Program-made: the position numbers and the translations under genes
Notes under the pieces: generated by a model
Seen by the model: only the letters and a program-made list of their open reading frames with translations
Database searches by the model: none
What the model was told of the DNA's origin: nothing
Part shown: positions 12,240 through 54,695 of the stretch, one piece after another
How the letters are laid out: each line of letters opens with the position of its first letter
Position numbering within the stretch: the first letter of the stretch is position 1
Origin: Felis catus
Lineage: Eukaryota
Reading direction: 5' to 3'
DNA: 64,000 nt
NCBI RefSeq assembly: GCF_018350175.1
Contig: NC_058368.1
Coordinates: 558,001 to 622,000, forward strand

Positions 12240-14157
12240 TTTTTTAAATATAATTTACTGTCAAGTTGGCTAACATACAGTGTATGCAGTGTGCTCTTGG
12301 TTTTGGGGATAGATTCCCATGATTCATCGCTTACATACTAAGCCCAGTGCTCATCCCAACAGGTGCCCTCCTCAATGCCCATCACCCATTTCCCCTCTCC
12401 CCTGCCGCCCTCATCAACCCTCAGTTTGTTCTTTGTATTTAAGAGTCTCCTATAGTTTGCCTCCCTCGCTCTCTGTTTGTAACTATTTTTTTTCTTCTTC
12501 CCCTCCCCCACAGTCTTCTGTTAAGTTTTTCAAGATCCACATATGAGTGAAAACATGATATCTTTCTCTGACTGATGTATTTCACTTAGCATAATACCCT
12601 CCAGTCCCATCCACGTTGCTGCAAATGGCATGATTTCATTCTTTCTCATTGCCAAGTAGTATTCCATTGTATCTATAAACCACATCTTCTTTATCCATTC
12701 ATCCATCATTGGACATTTAGGCTCTTTCCATAATTTGGCTATTGTTGAAAGTGCTACTATAAACATTGGGGTACATGTGCCCCTGTGAATCAGCACTCCT
12801 GTATCCTTTGGATAAATTCCTAGTAGTGCTATTGCTCTGTTGTAGGGTAATTCTATTTTTAATTTTTTGAGGACCCTCCACATTGTTTTCCAGAGCAGCT
12901 GCACCAGTTTGCATTCCCACCAGCAGTGCAAGAGGGTTCCCGTTTCTCCACATCCTTGCCAGCATCTGTTGTTTCCTGAGTGTTTAATTTTAGCCACTCT
13001 GACTGGTGTGAGATGGTATCTCAGTGTGATTTTTATTTGTATTTCGCTGATGATGAGTGACGTTGAGCATTTTTTCATGTCTGTTGGCCATCTGGATGTC
13101 TTCTTTGGAAAAGTGTCTATTCATGTCTTCTGACCACTTCCTCACTGGATTATTGATTTTTTGGGTGTTGAGTTTGGTAAGTTCTTTATAGATTTTGGAT
13201 ACTAACCCTTTATCCAGTATGTCTTTTGCAAATATCTTTTCCCATTCCATCGGTTGCCTTTGTTTTGTTGATTTTTCTTTTTTTCAGTGCAGAAGACTTT
13301 TATCTCAATGAGGTCCCAATAGTTCATTTTTTCTTTTAATTCCCTTGCCTTTAGAGATGTGTCAGGCAAGAAATTGCCACGGCTGAGGTCAAAGAGGTTG
13401 TTGCCTGCTTTCTCCTCTAGGGTTTTGATGGTTTCCTGTCTCACATTTAGGTCTTTCATACATTTTGAATTTATTTTTGTGTGTGGTGTAAGAAAGTGGC
13501 CCAGGTTCATTTTTCTGCATGTTGTGGTCCAGTTCTCCCAGCACCATTTGCTAAGGAGACTTTTTTCCATTGGATACTCTTTCCTGCTTTGTCAAAGATT
13601 AGTTGGGCATACATTTGTGGGTCCAATTCTGGGTTCTCTCTTCTGTTCCATTGGTCTATGTGTCTGTTTTTGTGCCAATACCATTCTGTCTTGATTACAG
13701 ATTTGTAGTAGAGGCTAAAGTCTGGGATTGTGATGCCTCCCACTTTTGTTTCCTTTTCCAACATAACTTTGGCTATTCAGGGTTTTTGTGGTTCCATAAA
13801 AAGTTTAGGATTGTTTGTTCTAGCTTTGAGAAGAATGCCTGTGCAATTTTGATTGGGATTGCACTGAATGTGTAGATTGCTTTGGGTAGTATTGACATTT
13901 TAACAATATTTGTTCTTCCAATCCATGAGCATGGAATATTTTTCTATTTCTTTGTGTCTTCTTCAATTTCCTTCATAAGTTTTCTGTAGTTTTCAGCATA
14001 CAGATCTTTTACATCTTTGGTTAGGTTTATTCCTAGGTATTTTATGGTTCTTGGTGCAATTGTAAATGGGAACGATTTCTTGATTTCTCTTTCTGTTGCT
14101 TCATTATTGGTGTATAGAAATGCAACCAATTTCTGTACACTGATTTTGTATCCTGCA
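12240..14157 (-). mobile_element. Feline-type L1, 5'-truncated (~1.9 kb)
   Basis: several ORF2 C-terminal peptides; 3'UTR of the same type as 49444-53522. Confidence 0.93.
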
Positions 14158-37462: not shown

Positions 37463-38142
37463 CAGATGGCCCTGAACAACGCTGTGGGGGTTAGGGGCAC
37501 TGATCCCCGAAGCAGTTGAAAATCCATGTACAACTTTGGACTACCTCAAAATGTGACTACTAATAGCCTACTGTTGACGAGAAGCCTTACAAACAGTATA
37601 AACAGATTAGCACATATTTTTATGTCATATGTATTATACACCATATTCTTTTTTTTTTTTAAGTAGGCACCATACCCAGTGTGGAGCCCAGTGCAGGGCT
37701 TGAACTCAACCCTGAGATTAAGAGTCAGACGCTTAACTGAGTGAGCCACCCATGTGCCCTATGTATTGTATTCTTACAATAAAGTTAGCTAGAGAAAAGA
37801 AAATGTTAAGAAAGTCATACACTCAGGGGCACCTGAGTGGCTCAGTCGGTTGAGCCTTCGACTTCGGCTCAGGTAATGATCTCCTGGTTCATGAGTTGAA
37901 GCCCCACGTCAGGCTCAAAGTGTCAATGCAGTTGTCCCCCTCTCTCTCTGTCCCACCCCTGCTTGCACTCTCTCAAAAATATATAAAATGTTTAAAATAA
38001 ATAAAACTTTTTTTAAATTTAAAAAATGAAAAAAAATTGTACGGAAGAGAAAATATATTTACAGTGCTGTACCGTATTTATTGAAAAATTGTGTGCAAGT
38101 GGACCCACACAGCTCAAACCCATGTTGCTCAAGGGTCAACTG
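37463..38142 (-). mobile_element. Tigger2a-like DNA transposon (opposite orientation) with two nested SINEs (37649-37760 -, 37826-38030 +)
   Basis: reverse-complement homology to the other two copies; TIR ...gctcaagggtcaactg TA. Confidence 0.8.
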
Positions 38143-38199
38143 TATATTCATTCTTCAAGTGAGGGCATAACAGACAACATAAAATGAAAGTCTTCTGTA

Positions 38200-45504: not shown

Positions 45505-48005
45505 GGAGAGTGACGCCGGCCAGATAGTGGAATAGGACGTCCCCGGCTCACATCTCCCTACACAAACAACAATCTGACAGCCAACCACAGATAAAACTGC
45601 TTTTGTGAGAGCTCTAGGATCCAGGTAGGAGGTTGAGAAACCCCAGTGAAGCCTAAGGCTGAGGACAGCCACTTTGAGAAGACAGTCTCATGGCCCAGTG
45701 GCAGGCTTACCAAACGTGGTCCTAGCTACAGGCCTAAAACAGCCCAGTCTGTCTGGAGGCTCCGCTCCAGCCCCATCTGCCAAAGGACCCAGGAGGAGCC
45801 ACACCCAACTGTGTCCCTGGTAACAGGCCCACAGACCTCAGTCGTGACTATAAAATCAGAAACAGTCCTGTAACCTGGCTCCAGCCCTGCTCTATTGTGG
45901 TACTGGAGTCAGTCCTGCTCACCCAGGGACCCAGCAGGAGGACTGAGGAGCCTAGGAGGAAGCTGCTCAAAACCTGTAGGAGCCACACCCATTCTCACTC
46001 CTGGTAACAGACCCACTGTCTGCACACTCAACAGTGGACCTGAAAGCAGCCCCATGATGTAGCTTCAGCCCTGCTGGACTCTGGTCCTAGAGCAGTCCTG
46101 TGCAACTGAGGATCTGGTAGGAACCACATCCGTCATGTCCCTGTTCACAGACCTGCCAATTAAGGACACTGTGGACTCAGCAGTAGGCACACTACAACCC
46201 CACTCAATTATGATCCTGGAGGCAGACCATCAGTCCAGGCATCCAGCAAGAGAAGGTCTTTACCTGCCAAAACTGGTCTGTTAAGACAAAAAGAGCTTTT
46301 TGGCCTTTCAAATGCAAAAATGTCAACACAAGAATTAGGCAAATGTGACACCACCAAAGGAAACTAGTAAATTAACAAGGCTCCAGTAACCAATCCAAAG
46401 AAATGCAGATCTAGGAACTGACAAAGAATTCAAAATAATTGTTTTAAAGAGTAAACTACAAGAGAACACAGATAAGGGCACCTGGGTGGCTCAGTCGGTT
46501 GAGCGTCTGACTTCGGGCTCAGGTCAGGATCTCATGGTTCGTGAGTTCAAGCCCCACGTCGGGCTCTGTGCTGACAGCTCAGAACCTGGAGCTTGCTTTG
46601 GATTCTGTGTCTCCCTCTCTCTCTGCCCCTCCCCCCACTCGTGCCATGTCTTTCTTTCAAAAATAAACATTAAAAAATAATTTTTTTGACAAAAAAAAAA
46701 AGAGAACACAGATAAACAACTCCACAAAATCAGGAAAATAATACCTGGGAAAAAAAAAAACAAACAACAAGTTCAACAAAGAGACAGAAATCATTAAAAA
46801 AAAACCCAAAACTATAGTTACTTAAAACTAAATAAATAAATAAAACTTAAGGGGTGCCTGGCTGGCTCAGTCAGAAGACCATGTAACTCTTGATCTCAGG
46901 GTCACGAGTTCAAGCCCCACAGGGGATGTAGAGATTACTTAAAAATAAATAAAATAAATAATACAAAAACAGAAATTCTGGAGCTAAAGAATACATGAAT
47001 AAAGTGTAAAATACAATAGAGAATTTCAACAGCAGACTTAAGCAGAAGAAAGAATCTGTGAACTCAAAAACAGATAATTTGAGGTTAGCCAGTCAGAGGA
47101 GAAAAAAGAAAAATAATGAAAAAGAGTGAAGAAAGCCCATGGGATCTATGGAGCACTACAAAAGAACCAATATGCTCATTATGGAAGTCTCAGAAAGAAA
47201 AAACAAGCAAAATCAACAACCCCCTTAGAAGACTAAGAAAGACAGAAGACTCGAATAAAATCATAAATGAAAGAGGACATGTTGCAATAGATGCCCCAGA
47301 AATAAAAAGGATCATATTATGAACAATTATATCCCCAAATCTGGATAATCTAGAAGAAACAGACAAATTCCTAGAAACATACAACCTACAAAACTGAATC
47401 TAGAAGAAACAGAAAGGCTGAAGAGACCCATAATAAGGAGATTGAATCAGAAATCAAAAACCTCCCAAGAAAGAAAAGTTCAGGACCAGATGGCTTCCCA
47501 GGTAAATTCCAGCAAACATTCAAAAAATAATTAATACCAATCCTTCCTGAACTTCTTCCAAAAAAAGAGAAGAAACACTTCCAAACTCATTTTATTATGA
47601 GGGTAGTATCACTTGGATGCCAAAGTCAGACAGTGACACCACAAGAAAACTACAGGCCAATATCCCTGATGAATATAACATGTAAAAATCCTCAATAAAC
47701 ACTAGCAAACCAAATCCAACAGCACATTAAAAGGATTTACACCATGACGTAGTGGGATTCATCCCTGGAACATAAGGCTGGCTCAACATATCAAATCAAT
47801 TAATGTGATACAAACTGGTGCAGCCACTGTATAAAAGTTTGGAAGTTCTTCAAAAAATTAAGTATAGAATTACCATATGATCTAGCAATTCCAATCCTGG
47901 GTATATACCCCAAAGAACTAAAAACAGAGACCTGAACAGATATTTGTACACCAATGTTAGTAGCATTATTCACAATAATCAAAAGGTAGAAACAACCCAA
48001 ATGTT
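45505..48005 (+). mobile_element. Old L1 with 5'UTR, ORF1 remnant and doubly deleted ORF2
   Basis: GC-richer 5'UTR with tandem units; ORF1 motifs; ORF2 jumps at ~47195 and ~47805; no 3'UTR. Confidence 0.8.
46476..46960 (+). mobile_element. Two Can-SINEs (46476-46700, 46851-46960) in L1 ORF1
   Basis: SINE heads; TSD agagaacacagataa around the first. Confidence 0.9.
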
Positions 48006-48045
48006 TAGCTGTGAGCCAAGAAATGCCAAGGATTGCCAGCAACAC
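48006..48045 (+). mobile_element. MLT1 (MaLR) LTR fragment, left part
   Basis: gagccaagaaatgccaaggattgccagcaac matches recalled MLT1B/C consensus; only 40 nt. Confidence 0.65.
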
Positions 48046-49427
48046 ACTTCTCCTACCCCACCCCTCCCCGTCGGCCCTCACCTTCCCCAAGAAGATACTC
48101 TCCTCCAATACAAAGGAGATACTCTCCTCCACCTCCAAAAAGAAGAACGACTTCTCCCCCTCCCCCTCCTAAACAAAGGGCATTGCCATCTCCACCACCA
48201 AAGTGTGGGTTCTCCCATTCTCCACTTACCAAACAAAGAACCTCCCCAGTCACCAAGAGACATTCACATTCATTAATATCAAAGCACAGGAAAGGGTCTT
48301 CCCCAAGCCGATCTACCCAGGAGCCCCAGTTACCACAACCAAACAGCATTCACCCTCACAATGGCTTCGAGGTCCTCAGACCTCAAGTCCTCCACCTGTT
48401 CGAAGAGGAGCATCATCAATCACCCCAAAGTAGGCAGTCCCGATGTCCAAGTACTAGGCCCATCAGGAGAGTCTCCAGGACTCTGAAACCCAAAAACACA
48501 AAACAGGCTGCCTCACCAAGCCCTCAGTCTGTAAGGAAGGTTTCATCCTCCCAATCTGTCTCAGGATCTCCTGAGCCAACAATTAAAAAGCCCTCACCAA
48601 CTCAGTCTCCTGTCCAGTCTCAGTCACCCTTTACCAACTGGTCACCAGTGGTACCAGTCAAAAAGGCTAAAAGCCCAACACCAAGCCCATCTCTGGCGAG
48701 GAACTCAGACCCAGAAAGAGGTGGGAAGAAAAAGAAAAAGAAGGACAAGAAACACAAGGAGGATAAGAAGCACAAGAAGCACAAAAAACACAAGAAGGAA
48801 AAGGCCGTGGATGCACCTGCTGTGGCTGCTGTACCCCTGCAGCCATTGCTGCTCCCACAACCACATCAGCACAGCCGGAACCAGAGGCAGAGCCTGAGCC
48901 TAAGGAGACCAAAAGCGAGCCTGAAGACAATCTCGACGACTGAGAAAAGCACTTGAGTGAAAAGGCACTGAGGTCGATGTGGAAGGCTCAAGGGTCCCCA
49001 CAGTCTTAGGTGGGAATGTGTGTTATGATGTACATTTTATTTGGTCTGTACACAATTCAATTTCAAAATTGCTAAAATGTGTTTGAGCTTTAGACTATAA
49101 CATTTGTTGTAATAATTGCTAGGTTGAAGTTCACCATGTAAAAAAAAAAAAGGGCACGGATTTGCATTGCAAACCAAAGGTGTCCACAGTGTATTAGTGA
49201 CATTCTTTCATTGACAGCTGACATAAATTCATTTCAAGTGAAATATTTTAAGCCGAAAAAAAATCCCCTTTTAAAAAAAAGGAGGGTTTCAATATTGTGG
49301 GCATTCTTACAGTTTCTTTAAAGGCCTTGGTTATTCCTAGAGATTTTCCTTTCTTTTGGTTTTTTTTTTTTCTTTTTCTTTAATTTTTCTCATTTGAGTC
49401 TTAGCACCCATTTAAGTTATGATGCTT
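48046..49427 (+). pseudogene. SRRM1: Processed pseudogene of SRRM1 (SRm160): C-terminal CDS plus proximal 3'UTR, truncated at both ends
   Basis: PRRYSPPIQRRYSP, SKHRKGSSPSRST, TNWSPVVPVKKAKSP and KKHKKHKKHKKEKAV match SRRM1; uninterrupted; frameshifts; parental stop TAG at 49007-49009 followed by SRRM1-like 3'UTR; no poly(A). Confidence 0.93.
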
Positions 49428-49443
49428 GTAAACGTTGTAAACG

Positions 49444-52400
49444 TTGCAAGGACCACAAAGTACCAGAGACATCACTACAAGCATAAAACCTACAGTTAAC
49501 ACAATGACTCTAAAACCGTATCTTTCAATAATAACACTGAATGTAAATGGACTAAATGATCCAATCAAAAGACACAGGATATCAGAATGGACAAAAAAAC
49601 AAGAACCATCTATTTGCTGTCTACAAAAGACTCATTTTAGACATGAGAACACCTTCAGATTGAAAATGAAGGGATGGAAAACTATCTGTCATGCTATTGG
49701 AAGTAAAAGAAAGCTGGAGTAGCCATACTTATATCAGACAAACTAGACGTTAAATTAAAGGCAGTTAACAAGAGATGAAGAAGGCATTATATAGTAATTA
49801 CAGGGTCGATCCATCAAGAGCTAACAATTATAAATGTCTATGCACCGAATTCACAGGCACCCAAATATATAAAAGAACTAATCACAAACATAAGCAATCT
49901 TATTGGTAGGAATGTGGTAATTGCAGGGGACTTTAATACTCCACTTACAGAAATGGATAGATCATCTAGACAGTGAATCAGTAAAGAAATAAGAGCCCTG
50001 AATGATACACTGGACCGGATGGACTTGACAGATACATTTAGAACTTTTCATCCTGCAGCAGCAGAATATACTTTCTTCTCGAGTGCACATGGAACACTCT
50101 CCAACATAGATCACATACTGGGTCACAAAACAACCCTCAATAAATATAAAAGAATTGAGATCATACCAGGAACACTTTCAGATCACAATGTTATGAAACT
50201 TGAAATCAACTACAGGAAAAAGTTTGGAAAACCTCCAAATGCATGGAGGTTAAAGAACATCCTACTAAAGAACGAATGGGTCAACTAGGCAATTAAAGAA
50301 GAAATTAAAAAATATATGGAAATAAATGAAAATGAAAATACAACAATCCAAACGCTTTGGGATGCAGCAAAGGAATTCCTAAGAGGAAAATACATTGCAA
50401 TACAGGCCTATCTCAAGAAAAAAAAAAAATCCCAAATACAAACTCTAATAGCACACCTCAAGGAACTAGAAGCAGAGCAGCAAAGAAACTCCAAAGCCAG
50501 CAGAAGAAGAGAAATAATAAAGATCAGAGCAGAAATAAACAATATAGACTCTAAGAAACCAGTAGAACAGATCAATGAAACCAAGAATTGGTTTATTGAA
50601 AAAATAAACAAAATTGATAAACCTCTAGCCAGGCTTCTCAAAAAGAAAAGAGAGAGGACCCAAATAGATAAAATCATGAATCAAAGTGGATTTATGACAA
50701 CCAATCCCTCAGAAATACAAGTAATTACCATGAAATACTATGGAAAATCATATGCCAACAAACTGGACAACCTGGAAGAAATGGACAAATTCCTAAACAC
50801 CCACACACTACCAAAACTCAAATGGGAAGAAATAGAAAACTTGAACAGACCCATTACTAGTGAAGGATTAAATCAGTTATCAAAAAATCTCCCAATAAAT
50901 AAGAGTCCTGGACCAGATGGCTTCCCTGCAAAATTCCACTAGACATTTAAAGCAGAGTTAGTACCTATCCTTCTCAAGCTGTTCCAAAAAACAGAAATGG
51001 AAGGAAAACTTCCGGACTCATGCTACGAAGCCAGCATTACTTTGATTCCCAAACCACACAGAGACCCAACAAAATAGGAGAACTACAGCCGAATATCCCT
51101 GATGAACGTGGATGCAAAAATTCTCAACAAGATACTAGCAAATCGAATTCAACAGCATATAAAAAGAATTATTCACCATGATCAAGTGGGATTCGTTCCT
51201 GGGCTGCAAGGCTGGTTCAATATTCACAAATCAATCAATGTGATACATCACAGTAATAAAAGAGAAGATAACAACCATATGATCCTGTCAATAGATAGAG
51301 AAAATGCATTAGACAAAATACAGCATCCTTTCTTAATAAAAACCCTCAAAAGTCGGAATAGAAGAAACATACCTCAGCATCATAAAAGCCATTTATGAAA
51401 AGCCCACAGCTAATATCATCCTCAATGGGGAAAAACTGAGAGATTTCCCCCTGAGATCAGGAACACAACATGGATATCCACTCTCACCACTGTTGTTTAA
51501 CATAGTGTTAGAAGTACTAGCATCAGCAATCAGACAACAAAATAAAATAAAAGGCATCCAAATTGGCAAAGAAGTCAAACTTTCACTTTTCACAGACAAC
51601 ATGATACTCTACATGGAAAACGCAACAGACTGCACCAAAAGTCTGCTAGAACTGATACATGAATTCAACAAAGTCACAGGTTACAAAATCAATGTACAGA
51701 AATTGGTTGCATTTTTATACACCAATAATGAAGCAACAGAAAGACAAATAAAGAAACTGGTCCCATTTACAACTACACCAAGAACCATAAAATACCTAGC
51801 AATAAACCTAACCAAAGATGCAAAAGATCTGTATACTAAAAACTATAGAAACTTTATGAAGGAAATTGAAGAAGACACAAAAAATGGAAAAACATTCCAT
51901 GCTCAGAATATTGTTAAAAGGTCAATACTACCCAAAGCAATCTACACATTCAATGCAATCCCAATCAAAATTGCATAAGCATTCTTCTCAAAGCTAGAAT
52001 AAGCAATCCTAAAATTTGTATGGAACCACAAAAGACCTCAAATAGCCAAAGTAATATTGAAAAAGAAAACCAAAGTGGGAGACATCACAATCCCAGACTT
52101 GCCTCTACAAAGCTGCAATCATCAAGACACAACAGACACATAGACAATGGAATAGAATAGAGAACTCAGAATTGGACCCACAAATGTATGGCCAACTAAT
52201 CTTTGACAAAGCAGGAAAGAGCATCCAATGGAAAAAAGAAAATCTCTTTAGCAAATTGTGCTGGGAGAACCAGATAGCAACATGCAGAAGAATGAAACTA
52301 GACCACTTTCTTATACCATACACAAAAATAAACTCAGAATGGATGAAAGACCTGAATATGAGACAGGAAACCATCAAAACCCTAGAGGAGAAAGCAGGAA

Positions 52401-53522
52401 AAAAACCTGTCTGACCTCAGCCGCAGCAATTTCTTACTCAACACATCTCCAAAGGCAAGGGAATTAAAAGCAAAAATGAACTATTGGGACCTCATCAAGA
52501 TAAAGAGCTTTTGCACTGCAAAGGAAACAATCACAAAACTAAAAGGCAACCAAAGGAATGGGAAAAGTTTTTGCAAATGACATATCGGACAAAGGGCTAG
52601 AATCCAAAATCTGTAAAGAACTCACCAAACTCCACACACGAAAAACAATAATCCAGTGAAGAAATGGGCAGAAGACATGAATAGATACTTTTCCAAAGAC
52701 ATCCAGATGGCCAACAGACACATTAAAAGATGCTCAAGGTCACTCATCACCAGGGAAATACAAATCAGAGCCACACTGAGATACCACCTCACACCAACAG
52801 AGTGGCTAAAATGAACAACTCAGGAGACTATAGATTCTGGCAAGCATGTGGAGAAACAGGAACCCTCTTGCACTGTTGGTGGGAATGCAAACTGGTGCAG
52901 CCACTCTGGAAAACAGTGTGGAAGTTCCTCCAAATATTAAAAATAGAACTACCCTACGACCCAGCAATAGCACTGCTAGGAATCTACCCAATGGATACAG
53001 GAGTGCTGATGCATAGGGGCACACGCACCCCAATGTTTATAGAAACGCTTTCAACAATAGCAAAATTATGAAAAGACCCTAAATGTCCATCAACTGACAA
53101 ATGGATAAAGAAGATGTGGTTTACATATACAATGAAATACTACTTGGCAATGAGAAAGAATGAACTCTGGCCATTTGCAGCAACGTGGATGGAACTGGAA
53201 GGTATTATGCTAAGTGAAATACGTCAGTCAGAGAAAGACAGATACCATATGTTTTCACTCATGTAGAACTTGAGAAATTTAACAGAAGACCCTAGGGGAA
53301 GGGAAGGGGAAAAAATAGTTACAGAGAGGGAAGCAGGCAAACCACAAGAGACTCTTAAATACAGAGAACAAACTGAGGGTGGATGGGGGGTGGGGGAAAG
53401 GGGAAAGTGGGTGATGGGCATTGAGGAGGGCACTTGGGATGAGCACTGGGTGTTGTATGTAAGCCAATTTGACAATAAATTATATTAAATAAATTTTAAA
53501 AAAGAAAAGAAAAGAAAAGAAA
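49444..53522 (+). mobile_element. Feline-type L1, 5'-truncated just upstream of ORF2; decayed EN/RT; 3'UTR and A-rich tail
   Basis: ORF2 start MTLKPYLSIITLNVNGLN at 49504; RT fragments; in-frame stops; AATAAA at 53474 and (GAAAA)n tail. Confidence 0.95.
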
Positions 53523-53973
53523 GCATAGTTCCACTGGATGCCTTGACTTCAGACTTCTGGCCTCCAGAACCATGAAAAAATAAATTCCCGTTGTTTTAAG
53601 CCACCTCATTTGTGTGTACAGTTGATCCTTAAACAACATGGTTTGAACTGCATAGATCCACTCATAAACAATTTTTATAGTACAGTACTATAAATGTATT
53701 TTCTCTTCCTTATGACTTTCTTAACATTTTTTTTTCTGTACCTTACTTTAATCATGAGAATATGTATATAACACATATAACAAACTATGTGTTAATCAAC
53801 TGTTATTGGTTAAGGCTTCCAATCAATCATCAGTAGAATATTCGTAGTTAAGTTTTTAGGGAGTCAAAAGTTTTATGTGGATTTTCGACTGTGCAGGGGT
53901 TTGGAGCCTCTAACTCCTGCATTGTTCAAGGATGAACTGTACTTTATTACATTAGCCCTAGAAAATTAATGCA
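53523..53973 (+). mobile_element. MLT1 LTR 3' part, interrupted by a Tigger2-type element
   Basis: ccttgacttcagacttctggcctccagaac...aataaa...ttgttttaagccac, resuming after 53941 as ctttattacattagccctagaaaattaatgca. Confidence 0.85.
53619..53939 (+). mobile_element. Tigger2a-like non-autonomous DNA transposon
   Basis: TIRs cagttgatccttaaacaacatg / cattgttcaaggatgaactg flanked by TA. Confidence 0.8.
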
Positions 53974-54112
53974 TTGGCCAAGGTAGCACCTGAAATCACA
54001 GCTCCAAAATGCTTGTCAAATTTCAATTTATGAACTCATCACTAAGAGAATTCCCCTTTTAACACATTTCTGATGACAGTGGGTCATTTTAATTAAAAAA
54101 TTCTTATGTGGT

Positions 54113-54350
54113 GGGGCGCCTTGGGTGGCTCAGCCGGTTAAGTGTCCAATTTCAGCTCAGGTCATGATCTCACAGTTCTTGGGTTCTAGCCCCACACTGG
54201 GCTCTATGCTGACAACTCAGAGCTTGGAGCCTGCTTTGGATTCTGTGTCTCCCTCTCTCTCTGCCCCTGACCCACTTGTGCTCTGTCTCTCTTTGCCTTT
54301 CCAAAATAAATAAATGTTAAAAAAAAAAAAAAAATCTTTTTTTTTTTTTT
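54113..54350 (+). mobile_element. Can-SINE
   Basis: TSD aattcttatgtggt; A-run then T-run tail. Confidence 0.92.
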
Positions 54351-54465
54351 TTTTAATTCTTATGTGGTAAAGGTTTCACTTCCTTTTCCTTTTTATTGTT
54401 GGATCGACAAAACTTGTTTCAAATATTCTAGATAAAAATCTTAAAGATAAAAGTGAATCATTGTA

Positions 54466-54695
54466 GGGGCGCCTGGGTGGCACAGTCGGTTAAAGCGTCC
54501 GACTTCAACCAGGTCACGATCTCGCAGTCCGTGAGTTCGAGCCCCGCGTCAGGCTCTGAGCTGATGGCTCAGAGCCTGGAGCCTGTTTCCGATTCTGTGT
54601 CTCCCTCTCTCTCTGCCCCTCCCCCGTTCATGCTCTGTCTCTCTCTGTCCCAAAAATAAATAAACGTTGAAAAAAAAAAATTAAAAAAAAAAAAA
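54466..54695 (+). mobile_element. Young feline Can-SINE
   Basis: TSD aaagtgaatcattgta. Confidence 0.95.

Follow-up and report, generated by a model that had tools for sequence, protein, structure and literature searches.

A spliced, decayed SRRM1 fragment joined directly to a 5'-truncated L1 in the genome of Felis catus, read as a clipped retrocopy or a single chimeric insertion

A copy of part of the SRRM1 mRNA lies immediately upstream of a 5'-truncated L1, on the same strand, in the 64,000-nucleotide stretch of the Felis catus genome analysed here (the window; NCBI RefSeq assembly GCF_018350175.1, contig NC_058368.1, positions 558,001 to 622,000). The SRRM1 copy comprises the end of the coding sequence and a presumed piece of the 3'UTR, and the L1 comprises an ORF2 remnant and a 3' end that carries the sole A-rich tail of the combined structure. 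Short flank pieces border the structure on both sides, with remains of an older L1 upstream and a MITE downstream (Table 1).

Table 1. Features of the SRRM1/L1 locus and its surroundings (positions are those of the window).
Feature	Position	Strand	Basis or remarks
Older, more diverged L1 ORF2 fragments	47238..48005	+	found by blastn with the younger L1 as query
5' flank, ~40 bp	48006..48046		no significant similarity to the rest of the window
SRRM1 coding part	48047..49009	+	residues ~580-904 and native stop; spliced; PDB SEQRES matches, exon fragments, frameshift-aware alignment
Presumed SRRM1 3'UTR, ~420 nt	49010..49428	+	adjoins the stop codon; unique in the window; no poly(A) signal, no terminal A-run
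9-bp tandem duplication, perfect, 2.3 copies	49426..49446	+	by Tandem Repeats Finder, period 9 with 100% matches; coincides exactly with the joint between SRRM1 and L1
5'-truncated felid-type L1	49430..53496	+	related L1 fragments read through upstream of the ATG; closest named relatives from Panthera leo, 78-79%
ORF2 remnant, endonuclease and reverse-transcriptase domains	49504..53263	+	7 stops, 12 frameshifts, 17 codon deletions
L1 poly(A) signals and A-rich tail	53474..53522	+	AATAAA at 53474, ATTAAA at 53484; (AAAAG)4.6 at 53500-53522
3' flank	53523..53615		no significant similarity to the rest of the window
MITE, small DNA-transposon-like, interrupting the 3' flank	53616..53942		21-nt inverted terminal repeats, 90% complementary

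The translation of positions 48015-48956 was aligned to the human SRRM1 sequence in PDB SEQRES (6ff4_Y, 904 aa), where query residues 16-274 matched residues 584-846 (E 3.7e-84). A third frame, at 48767-49006, matched residues 830-904 (E 2.1e-19 against PDB SEQRES) and, because it reaches residue 904, indicates that the SRRM1 copy extends to its native stop codon at 49007-49009. The coding part is disabled by three frameshifts (near 48345, 48415, and 48831) and one premature TGA at 48941. It is cut at both ends, comprising neither the 5' end of the mRNA nor the end of the 3'UTR; 5' truncation is normal among retrocopies. The reference for these comparisons was the human PDB SEQRES entry together with fragments: the representative library returned 20 matches that were all fragments, and a word-index search returned three, none of them usable as a reference. 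Since a full-length mammalian SRRM1 protein was thus lacking as a reference, the divergence of the SRRM1 part was partly counted by hand from the alignments to 6ff4_Y.

At least two exon junctions in the SRRM1 part are spliced. Five independent ORF fragments in the protein library (P0246, P0247, P0248, P0250, and P0251) have a single SRRM1 segment in common, and on both sides of that segment they depart from SRRM1 and from one another, as genomic sequence does where an exon has an intron on either side. The next exon is where non-mammalian SRRM1 fragments begin. The window runs uninterrupted across both exon boundaries into the adjoining SRRM1 coding sequence, and the introns are therefore absent, as is characteristic of a retrocopy. 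These observations agree with the original prediction of an intronless SRRM1 fragment that begins in the middle of the coding sequence; the exon junctions, which had been singled out for confirmation, proved to be spliced at both boundaries when judged from the exon-plus-intron ORF fragments. Retained SRRM1 intron was considered as the source of the 5' flank and rejected, as the ~40 bp before 48047 are purine-rich, lack a polypyrimidine tract, and are, we assume, LTR-like.

The search matches also included SRRM1 fragments of other genomes that are likewise spliced and decayed (P0001, P0249, P0252, and P0254), suggesting that SRRM1 is a ready source of retrocopies. Processed pseudogenes of human SRRM1 (SRRM1P1-P3) are named in passages of published papers. 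The fragment described here resembles SRRM1 processed pseudogenes in being a spliced, decayed, 5'-truncated mRNA copy in unrelated surroundings but differs in the absence of the 3'UTR end, the poly(A) tail, and the direct repeats.

The sequence that follows the stop codon is presumed to be SRRM1 3'UTR on the basis of its contiguity with that codon. It ends at ~49428 with neither a poly(A) signal nor an A-tail: no AATAAA or ATTAAA was found in 49010-49450, none of eight variant poly(A) hexamers was found in 49300-49450, and no A-run of six or more was found in the presumed 3'UTR after 49280. An end without poly(A) at ~49427, as had been proposed, is thereby substantiated. The SRRM1 and L1 parts are joined directly: all that separates them is a second 9-bp copy of the bases with which the L1 opens. 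The right-hand copy of the duplication is the start of the L1-homologous sequence. Splicing or trans-splicing at the joint was examined as a candidate and rejected, as the SRRM1 break keeps its sequence rather than losing it and the L1 start is not preceded by an AG. A search of 47000-54500 for Rfam families identified none.

Homology to L1 begins at 49439 or, with the left copy of the duplication included, at 49430; the ORF2 ATG follows 65-74 nt further on. In a frameshift-aware alignment, the ORF2 remnant spans residues 2-1272 of a 1275-aa canid ORF2, with 68% identity over 1242 codons; identity to felid fragments is 82-83%. The element branches off the felid L1 lineage at a point later than the separation of that lineage from canid L1, and dog is therefore expected to lack at least the L1. 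Reverse-transcriptase (RVT_1) domain matches were above the cut-off (E 2.5e-15 and 7.2e-14), and endonuclease domain matches were weak and below it. The ORF2 alignment, the two poly(A) signals, and the A-rich tail bear out the claim that a 5'-truncated L1 in the same orientation supplies the only A-tail.

The 5' flank resembles the middle, and the 3' flank the 3' part, of a MaLR/MLT1 LTR; the two may be pieces of one such element, as had been proposed, with a putative gap between them relative to the family consensus. Neither flank has a significant or collinear match in the window, and the window holds no second LTR copy for comparison. The best flank-to-flank match, as a candidate target-site duplication (TSD), scores 6, a score equalled in 250 of 300 shuffles, and the final 19 nt of that 5' flank have no displaced counterpart in the window; the stated absence of a TSD thus holds. 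Relatives of the MITE are present in the window at 38052-38144 and 1612-1691. The older L1 upstream matches the younger at 72% (47238-47812 against 50647-51247) and 77% (47808-47910 against 52885-52989) by blastn. It stops at ~48005, against the ~40-bp flank piece, without an L1 3' end. This is a second 3'-truncated retroelement joint, 1.4 kb upstream of the SRRM1/L1 joint, and indicates that deletions have happened at the locus.

The two parts of the structure have decayed to a similar extent. Disabling mutations number 4 in 963 nt of SRRM1 (4.2 per kb) and 19 in 3760 nt of L1 (5.1 per kb). A ratio of L1 age to SRRM1 age below ~0.45 is disfavoured (P 0.043 at r = 0.45), and ratios of ~0.5 or more are allowed. 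The L1 has accumulated 0.13-0.15 amino-acid changes per site on its own branch, and raw differences in the SRRM1 part amount to ~0.16-0.19 by hand count from the PDB alignments (12 of 66 in the frameshift-aware alignment). CpG-rich codons would be expected to produce an excess of SRRM1 over L1 divergence of about this size, and by disabling mutations and amino-acid divergence the two parts look equally old. Clearly different ages had been named beforehand as evidence against a single insertion, and with equal decay no such difference is apparent. The proposal of a single chimeric insertion therefore survives the comparison, though it is unproven. The testable parts of the earlier observation were all confirmed.

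L1 insertion-mediated deletion, the hallmarks of which were reportedly set out by Han et al. in 2005, provides one comparison for this structure. The likeness lies in an L1 that is truncated at its 5' end but keeps its 3' end and tail, in the lack of a TSD, and in an apparent loss of target DNA; the difference is that the target deletion at this locus is inferred and would have to take the 3' end of an older retrocopy. Non-classical, endonuclease-independent L1 insertions (NCLI) provide another. NCLI elements usually lack a tail or are 3'-truncated, whereas the L1 described here has a full 3' end with poly(A) signals and an A-rich tail. As presented by Sen et al. (2007; PMC1920257), NCLI elements are like the locus in that they have no TSD, are accompanied by a loss of target DNA (apparent here), and carry additional sequence at the L1 5' end that is not L1 and in some cases derives from cellular RNA. 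This additional DNA measures 4-312 bp there and ~1.4 kb here. The same text uses the term L1 insertion-mediated deletion and reports that 18 of 21 verified TSD-less human L1 insertions were accompanied by target deletions. Cellular RNA was present at the L1 5' end in two of the 21 (U6 in one and an 18-bp piece of GPD2 mRNA in the other), suggesting, as far as that text goes, that chimeras may be enriched in the TSD-less class.

Template-switch chimeras, comprising U6/L1 and mRNA/L1 forms (Buzdin and colleagues; Law & Burns, 2025), resemble the locus in having a copy of a cellular RNA 5' of a 5'-truncated L1, in the same orientation, with a direct joint and an A-tail only at the L1 end. Five defining features of such chimeras have been published, in PMC2104539 among other sources. 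A 5'-truncated, tailed LINE as the 3' part and direct joining in the same orientation are both observed at the locus. A full-length 5' part is not, as only residues ~580-904 of 904 are present and the 5' part is an internal mRNA fragment, and flanking direct repeats are likewise absent. In the available text of Law & Burns (2025), it is a criterion that both parts of a chimera arrive at the same time; 15 of 17 human mRNA/lncRNA-L1 chimeras carry the transcript start, mostly with an L1 that is nearly full-length, and TSDs are present in the examples illustrated. The locus differs from most of these human chimeras, which consist of first exons and near full-length L1.

The window alone cannot separate one chimeric insertion, as originally proposed, from two ordinary events and a deletion, a form of which had been named as the alternative, and either reading is a known kind of structure. 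We assign a probability of roughly 0.5 to an ordinary SRRM1 retrocopy that lost its 3' end to a deletion, either associated with the L1 or later. A 5'-truncated SRRM1 processed pseudogene, running from the middle of the coding sequence to the mRNA end with a tail and TSD, would have inserted into an old LTR, and a felid L1 in the same orientation would then have landed just downstream. The DNA between them would have been lost (what remained of the SRRM1 3'UTR, with its tail and 3' direct repeat, together with some tens of bp of LTR), either during L1 integration, in the manner of an L1 insertion-mediated deletion that leaves no TSD, or by a later simple deletion between neighbouring insertions. 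DNA end joining would have sealed the joint and would also explain the 9-bp templated duplication, which seems to fit end joining better than reverse-transcriptase switching. Here the order of events and the deletion are what we infer, from parts whose identity, extent, orientation, and decay, and whose missing tail, poly(A) signal, and TSD, were observed directly. This sequence of events requires only known kinds of events. It is favoured by an L1 whose 3' end and tail are intact yet which has no TSD, in line with the reported hallmarks of L1 insertion-mediated deletion, by the readiness with which SRRM1 appears to spawn retrocopies, and by the other 3'-truncated retroelement joint nearby. 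Truncation of SRRM1 at both ends, which departs from the full-length 5' part given in the available portion of PMC2104539, and the unlikeness to the human chimeras in the accessible text of Law & Burns point the same way. Conversely, the equal decay of the two parts, including their similar amino-acid divergence and the disfavoured range of young L1 ages, argues against two separate arrivals. Downstream there is no remnant of SRRM1 3'UTR, tail, or second direct repeat, and the breakpoints of two or three events would by chance have to give a clean head-to-tail joint. The base rates for both the clipped retrocopy and the chimera are uncertain by an order of magnitude.

A single chimeric insertion is a tentative but serious alternative, which we place short of even odds. 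In that case ~4.1 kb of L1 RNA would have been reverse-transcribed before a switch into the middle of the SRRM1 3'UTR and the copying of ~1.4 kb more, or else SRRM1 cDNA would have been co-captured at the same break, with a small target deletion and no duplication. The direct joint in a common orientation, with neither a tail nor a poly(A) signal intervening, the one A-tail at the L1 end, and the indistinguishable ages are what such an event would leave, and mRNA-L1 chimeras are documented, as are, in the accessible part of PMC1920257, cellular-RNA pieces at the 5' ends of TSD-less human insertions. Against these stand the absent direct repeats, a 5' part that is not a full-length RNA copy, and an acceptor site that is internal rather than at the RNA 3' end (features as given in the available portion of PMC2104539). 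Two rarities would have to coincide, the enzyme switching into an mRNA and the integration being of the deletion type; the 1.4-kb spliced mRNA piece far exceeds the 18-bp precedent; and a 9-bp templated duplication would be unusual for a template switch. Explanations other than a clipped retrocopy or a single chimeric insertion are, taken together, unlikely. Among them, retrocopying of a chimeric transcript is improbable: a sense L1 in or after the 3'UTR of the SRRM1 gene, with a transcript that ended at the L1 poly(A) signal and was retrocopied with 5' truncation, would account for the direct joint, the common orientation, the single tail, and the equal decay, but a TSD-less insertion would still be required, an essential gene would have to tolerate a 4-kb sense L1 in its 3'UTR, and nothing in the window supports it. 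Mis-joining of the SRRM1/L1 or flank joints during assembly is hardly credible, as 14 DNA-type or untyped runs contain 0.60-0.65 of the words sampled from 47500-54200, these runs coming from six studies with three organism labels, and both parts show the same decay.

If the structure arose at one stroke, it would stand as a large case in which L1 reverse transcriptase, or break repair, fused L1 to a piece from the interior of an mRNA with no TSD. It would represent a TSD-less, internal-acceptor class of mRNA-L1 chimera in the cat lineage, resolved with a target-site deletion and with a 9-bp templated duplication at the joint. Surveys that require TSDs exclude such chimeras. If a retrocopy was instead clipped in connection with a neighbouring L1, the locus would represent routine genome decay. 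Both parts are dead and lie in apparently non-coding DNA, and no function is implied.

Scans of other sequence collections for related DNA were also conducted. In metagenome_contigs, the SRRM1 alignment scan produced 582 pattern matches with none confirmed, and the L1 alignment scan produced one locus at 33% identity that was set aside. Carnivore L1 or SRRM1 DNA was not found in viral_contigs by pattern scan (0) or protein scan (0 loci), and the single bacterial locus from genome_contigs (50% over 32 residues) was set aside. In the run search, part of the sequence was present in 20 of the 24 runs listed; the RNA metatranscriptome runs contain 0.14-0.36 of its words, a figure that has no bearing on expression.

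The window consists of carnivoran nuclear DNA, in which the SRRM1 copy and the L1 stand one after the other in the same orientation, as originally described, and the coding portion of the former corresponds to the C-terminal third of the protein. Translation of 48015-48956 (query residues 16-274) matched residues 584-846 of human SRRM1 (PDB SEQRES 6ff4_Y, 904 aa; E 3.7e-84), and a third frame (48767-49006) matched residues 830-904, up to the last residue (E 2.1e-19), with the native stop codon at 49007-49009. Frameshift-aware alignment to stored SRRM1 fragments placed frameshifts near 48345, 48415, and 48831 and a premature TGA at 48941. Among library proteins, P0245 is a predicted product of 102 aa that matches the pseudogene's out-of-frame tail (48651-48956) at 100% identity, so that a gene caller has evidently annotated an ORF from the dead SRRM1 copy.

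Features at and around the SRRM1/L1 joint (window positions)
Feature	Position	Strand	Basis or remarks
Older L1, ORF1-like then ORF2-like	45600-48005	+	long, internal deletions; stops at ~48005, lacking both the L1 3' end and a tail
SRRM1 CDS part, C-terminal third	48047-49009	+	protein match to human SRRM1
Presumed SRRM1 3'UTR	49010-~49428 (~420 nt)	+	contiguity with stop codon only
5'-truncated felid-type L1	~49430/49439-53522	+	homology from 49439
L1 poly(A) signals	53474, 53484	+	
L1 tail, (AAAAG)4.6	53500-53522	+	
327-bp element breaking up 3' flank	53616-53942		21-nt inverted terminal repeats, 90% complementary

When the SRRM1 part was searched against 1.84 billion representative proteins, 20 matches were returned. 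Five fragments (P0246, P0247, P0248, P0250, and P0251) have one 63-residue SRRM1 segment in common and nothing else, with unrelated, mutually different residues on either side of it in all five; judged from sequence, this is the pattern expected when gene callers run past the ends of a genomic exon into the flanking introns. In five non-mammalian fragments (P0256, P0257, P0260, P0261, and P0264), unrelated residues come first and are followed by the next SRRM1 segment, the start of which marks the same exon boundary. The window sequence is continuous over both exon boundaries, indicating splicing at two or more exon junctions and an intronless SRRM1 fragment, as originally described. The 5' end of the copy (48047-48060) also lies within a few codons of the start of P0253, a non-mammalian SRRM1 exon fragment, a coincidence to which a rough estimate gives a chance of about 1 in 10.

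The presumed 3'UTR had no match elsewhere within the window. Neither AATAAA nor ATTAAA occurs in it, none of eight variant poly(A) hexamers was found in its last 150 nt, and no A-run of at least 6 nt follows 49280. The lack of both a signal and a terminal A-run suggests that the copy ends within the UTR rather than at a poly(A) site, which upholds the claim that the SRRM1 part ends without poly(A). A 12-nt A-run inside the presumed 3'UTR (49140-49151) lies far upstream of the break and is not a tail.

Two ORF pieces of the L1 matched Pfam RVT_1 (E 2.5e-15 and 7.2e-14); endonuclease matches were weak and under the cut-off. Frameshift-aware alignment matched 49504-53263 to a canid ORF2 of 1275 aa (P0148) from residue 2 to residue 1272, with 68.4% identity over 1242 matched codons and damage amounting to 7 stop codons, 12 frameshifts, and 17 codon deletions. 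Identity to four felid-type fragments was 81.6-83.0% over 571-690 codons and, among named relatives, Panthera leo proteins were closest (78-79%), followed by dog (70-71%) and giant panda (69-70%). The L1 start was sought with 49441-49722 as query, which yielded 482 proteins at E ≤0.001 among 487 candidates; 25 of the 120 listed, chosen for high query coverage, were aligned. The alignment extends through residues upstream of the ORF2 start in 23 of the 25, and 14 have at least three residues ahead of a common LQGPQSTRD motif, the last two being Glu or Asp followed by Met or Thr. Ahead of this motif the window has a stop codon one base from Glu, then T, and homology is lost one codon further upstream, which places the start of L1 homology at 49439. 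The L1 is 5'-truncated and supplies the only A-tail, as had been proposed. Its closest relative within the window is an L1 3' fragment on the minus strand (12329-14155), which shares 85.6% identity with 51677-53464 across 1844 aligned positions.

Tandem Repeats Finder reported a perfect 9-bp tandem repeat of 2.3 copies at 49426-49446, and thus the first nine L1 bases are doubled exactly at the joint. No other perfect tandem repeat of 9 bp was reported between 47500 and 54200. The chance of such a repeat landing on the joint is, by a rough estimate, a fraction of a percent, and we therefore infer that the duplication is a by-product of the joining reaction. No Rfam families were detected in 47000-54500. 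Fourteen sequencing runs (DNA-type or untyped, from six studies under three organism labels) contain 0.60-0.65 of the words sampled from 47500-54200, and scans of viral, metagenome, and prokaryote collections returned nothing usable.

Disabling mutations number 3 frameshifts and 1 stop in 963 nt of SRRM1 CDS (4.2 per kb) and 12 frameshifts and 7 stops in 3760 nt of L1 ORF2 (5.1 per kb). Given 23 events, the probability of 4 or fewer in SRRM1 is 0.48 at equal age, 0.043 if the L1 were 0.45 of the age of the SRRM1 copy, and 0.004 at 0.3. Three-point comparison of the window, a felid reference, and dog gave the L1 an own branch of 0.128-0.149 amino-acid changes per site with four long references (564-681 columns; felid branch 0.03-0.05, dog branch 0.19-0.21) and 0.096-0.127 when two short references covering the N terminus were used (116 columns; felid branch 0.115-0.146, dog branch 0.219-0.251). 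A hand count from alignments and the frame-B ORF gave ~61 differences from human SRRM1 in ~322 codons, at least 5 of which occur also in other non-human SRRM1 fragments and probably reflect lineage divergence or CpG changes that arose in parallel; one clean exon had 12 differences in 66 codons by frameshift-aware alignment. In simulation, these values translate into nucleotide divergences of roughly 5.5-6.5% (L1) and 7.5-9% (SRRM1). Codons for Arg, Ser, and Pro abound in the SRRM1 region, and many changes are CpG-type (e.g., Arg to Gln, Cys, His, or Trp); the excess in SRRM1 therefore appears to be of the size that equal age would give. Collectively, the ages of the two parts are indistinguishable and the L1 is not much younger; the clear age difference that would count against the original prediction was not seen.

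We favor, at a probability of about 0.5, an origin in two or three steps, whereby an ordinary SRRM1 retrocopy acquired a neighboring L1 and lost its 3' end through deletion at the DNA level. The templated 9-bp duplication, the truncation of the SRRM1 part at both ends, and the neighboring deletion-type joint at 48005 all favor such loss over a single event, in which template switching or cDNA co-capture joined SRRM1 to the L1. The apparently equal age of the parts, however, favors the single event perhaps 2-3 fold. Base rates for the two, which draw on L1-associated deletion frequencies and retrocopy density, lie within one order of magnitude of each other on a rough reckoning. We hold the single event as a tentative reading, with odds somewhat short of even, and a single template-switch origin as possible. 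The arrangement might also be a retrocopy of a read-through SRRM1-L1 transcript, which is improbable, or an assembly artefact, which is very improbable; a small share of the probability is assigned to none of these. Under either the stepwise or the single-event reading, SRRM1/L1 falls among known kinds of retroelement rearrangement.

Template-switch chimeras, as characterized in PMC2104539, combine a full-length 5' part with a 5'-truncated LINE 3' part through a direct same-orientation joint and are flanked by direct repeats, whereas SRRM1/L1 has neither the full-length 5' part nor the flanking repeats. It likewise differs from the 17 mRNA/lncRNA-L1 chimeras of hg38 found by Law & Burns, 15 of which begin at transcript starts, most with a near full-length L1 partner, and where the examples shown are flanked by TSDs. 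Of the 21 L1 insertions without TSDs that Sen et al. (2007; PMC1920257) verified, target deletions accompanied 18, and in 2 the L1 5' end bore fragments of other cellular RNAs (in one case 18 bp of an mRNA), which suggests by analogy that co-capture may be enriched in the TSD-less class.

Comparison of 76 bp around the 5' joint with 81 bp around the 3' joint gave a best match score of 6, reached by 250 of 300 shuffles, in keeping with the claim that no TSD is visible. With up to 3 mismatches allowed, the 19 nt that end the 5' flank have no second copy within the window. The two outer flanks resemble pieces of a single MaLR/MLT1 LTR from which a few tens of bp would have been lost; no other copy of this sequence was found within the window. 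The 5' flank piece is only ~40 bp and adjoins the older L1 fragment, which lacks its own 3' end, and their contact is thus another joint at a 3'-truncated retroelement, 1.4 kb from the SRRM1/L1 joint. Inside the older L1 are two tRNA-derived SINE copies (46476-46700 and ~46850-46925), presumably of a carnivore-type family, the first of which is bracketed by a repeated, TSD-like stretch of ~15 nt. Relatives of the inverted-repeat element in the 3' flank occur at 38052-38144 and 1612-1691.
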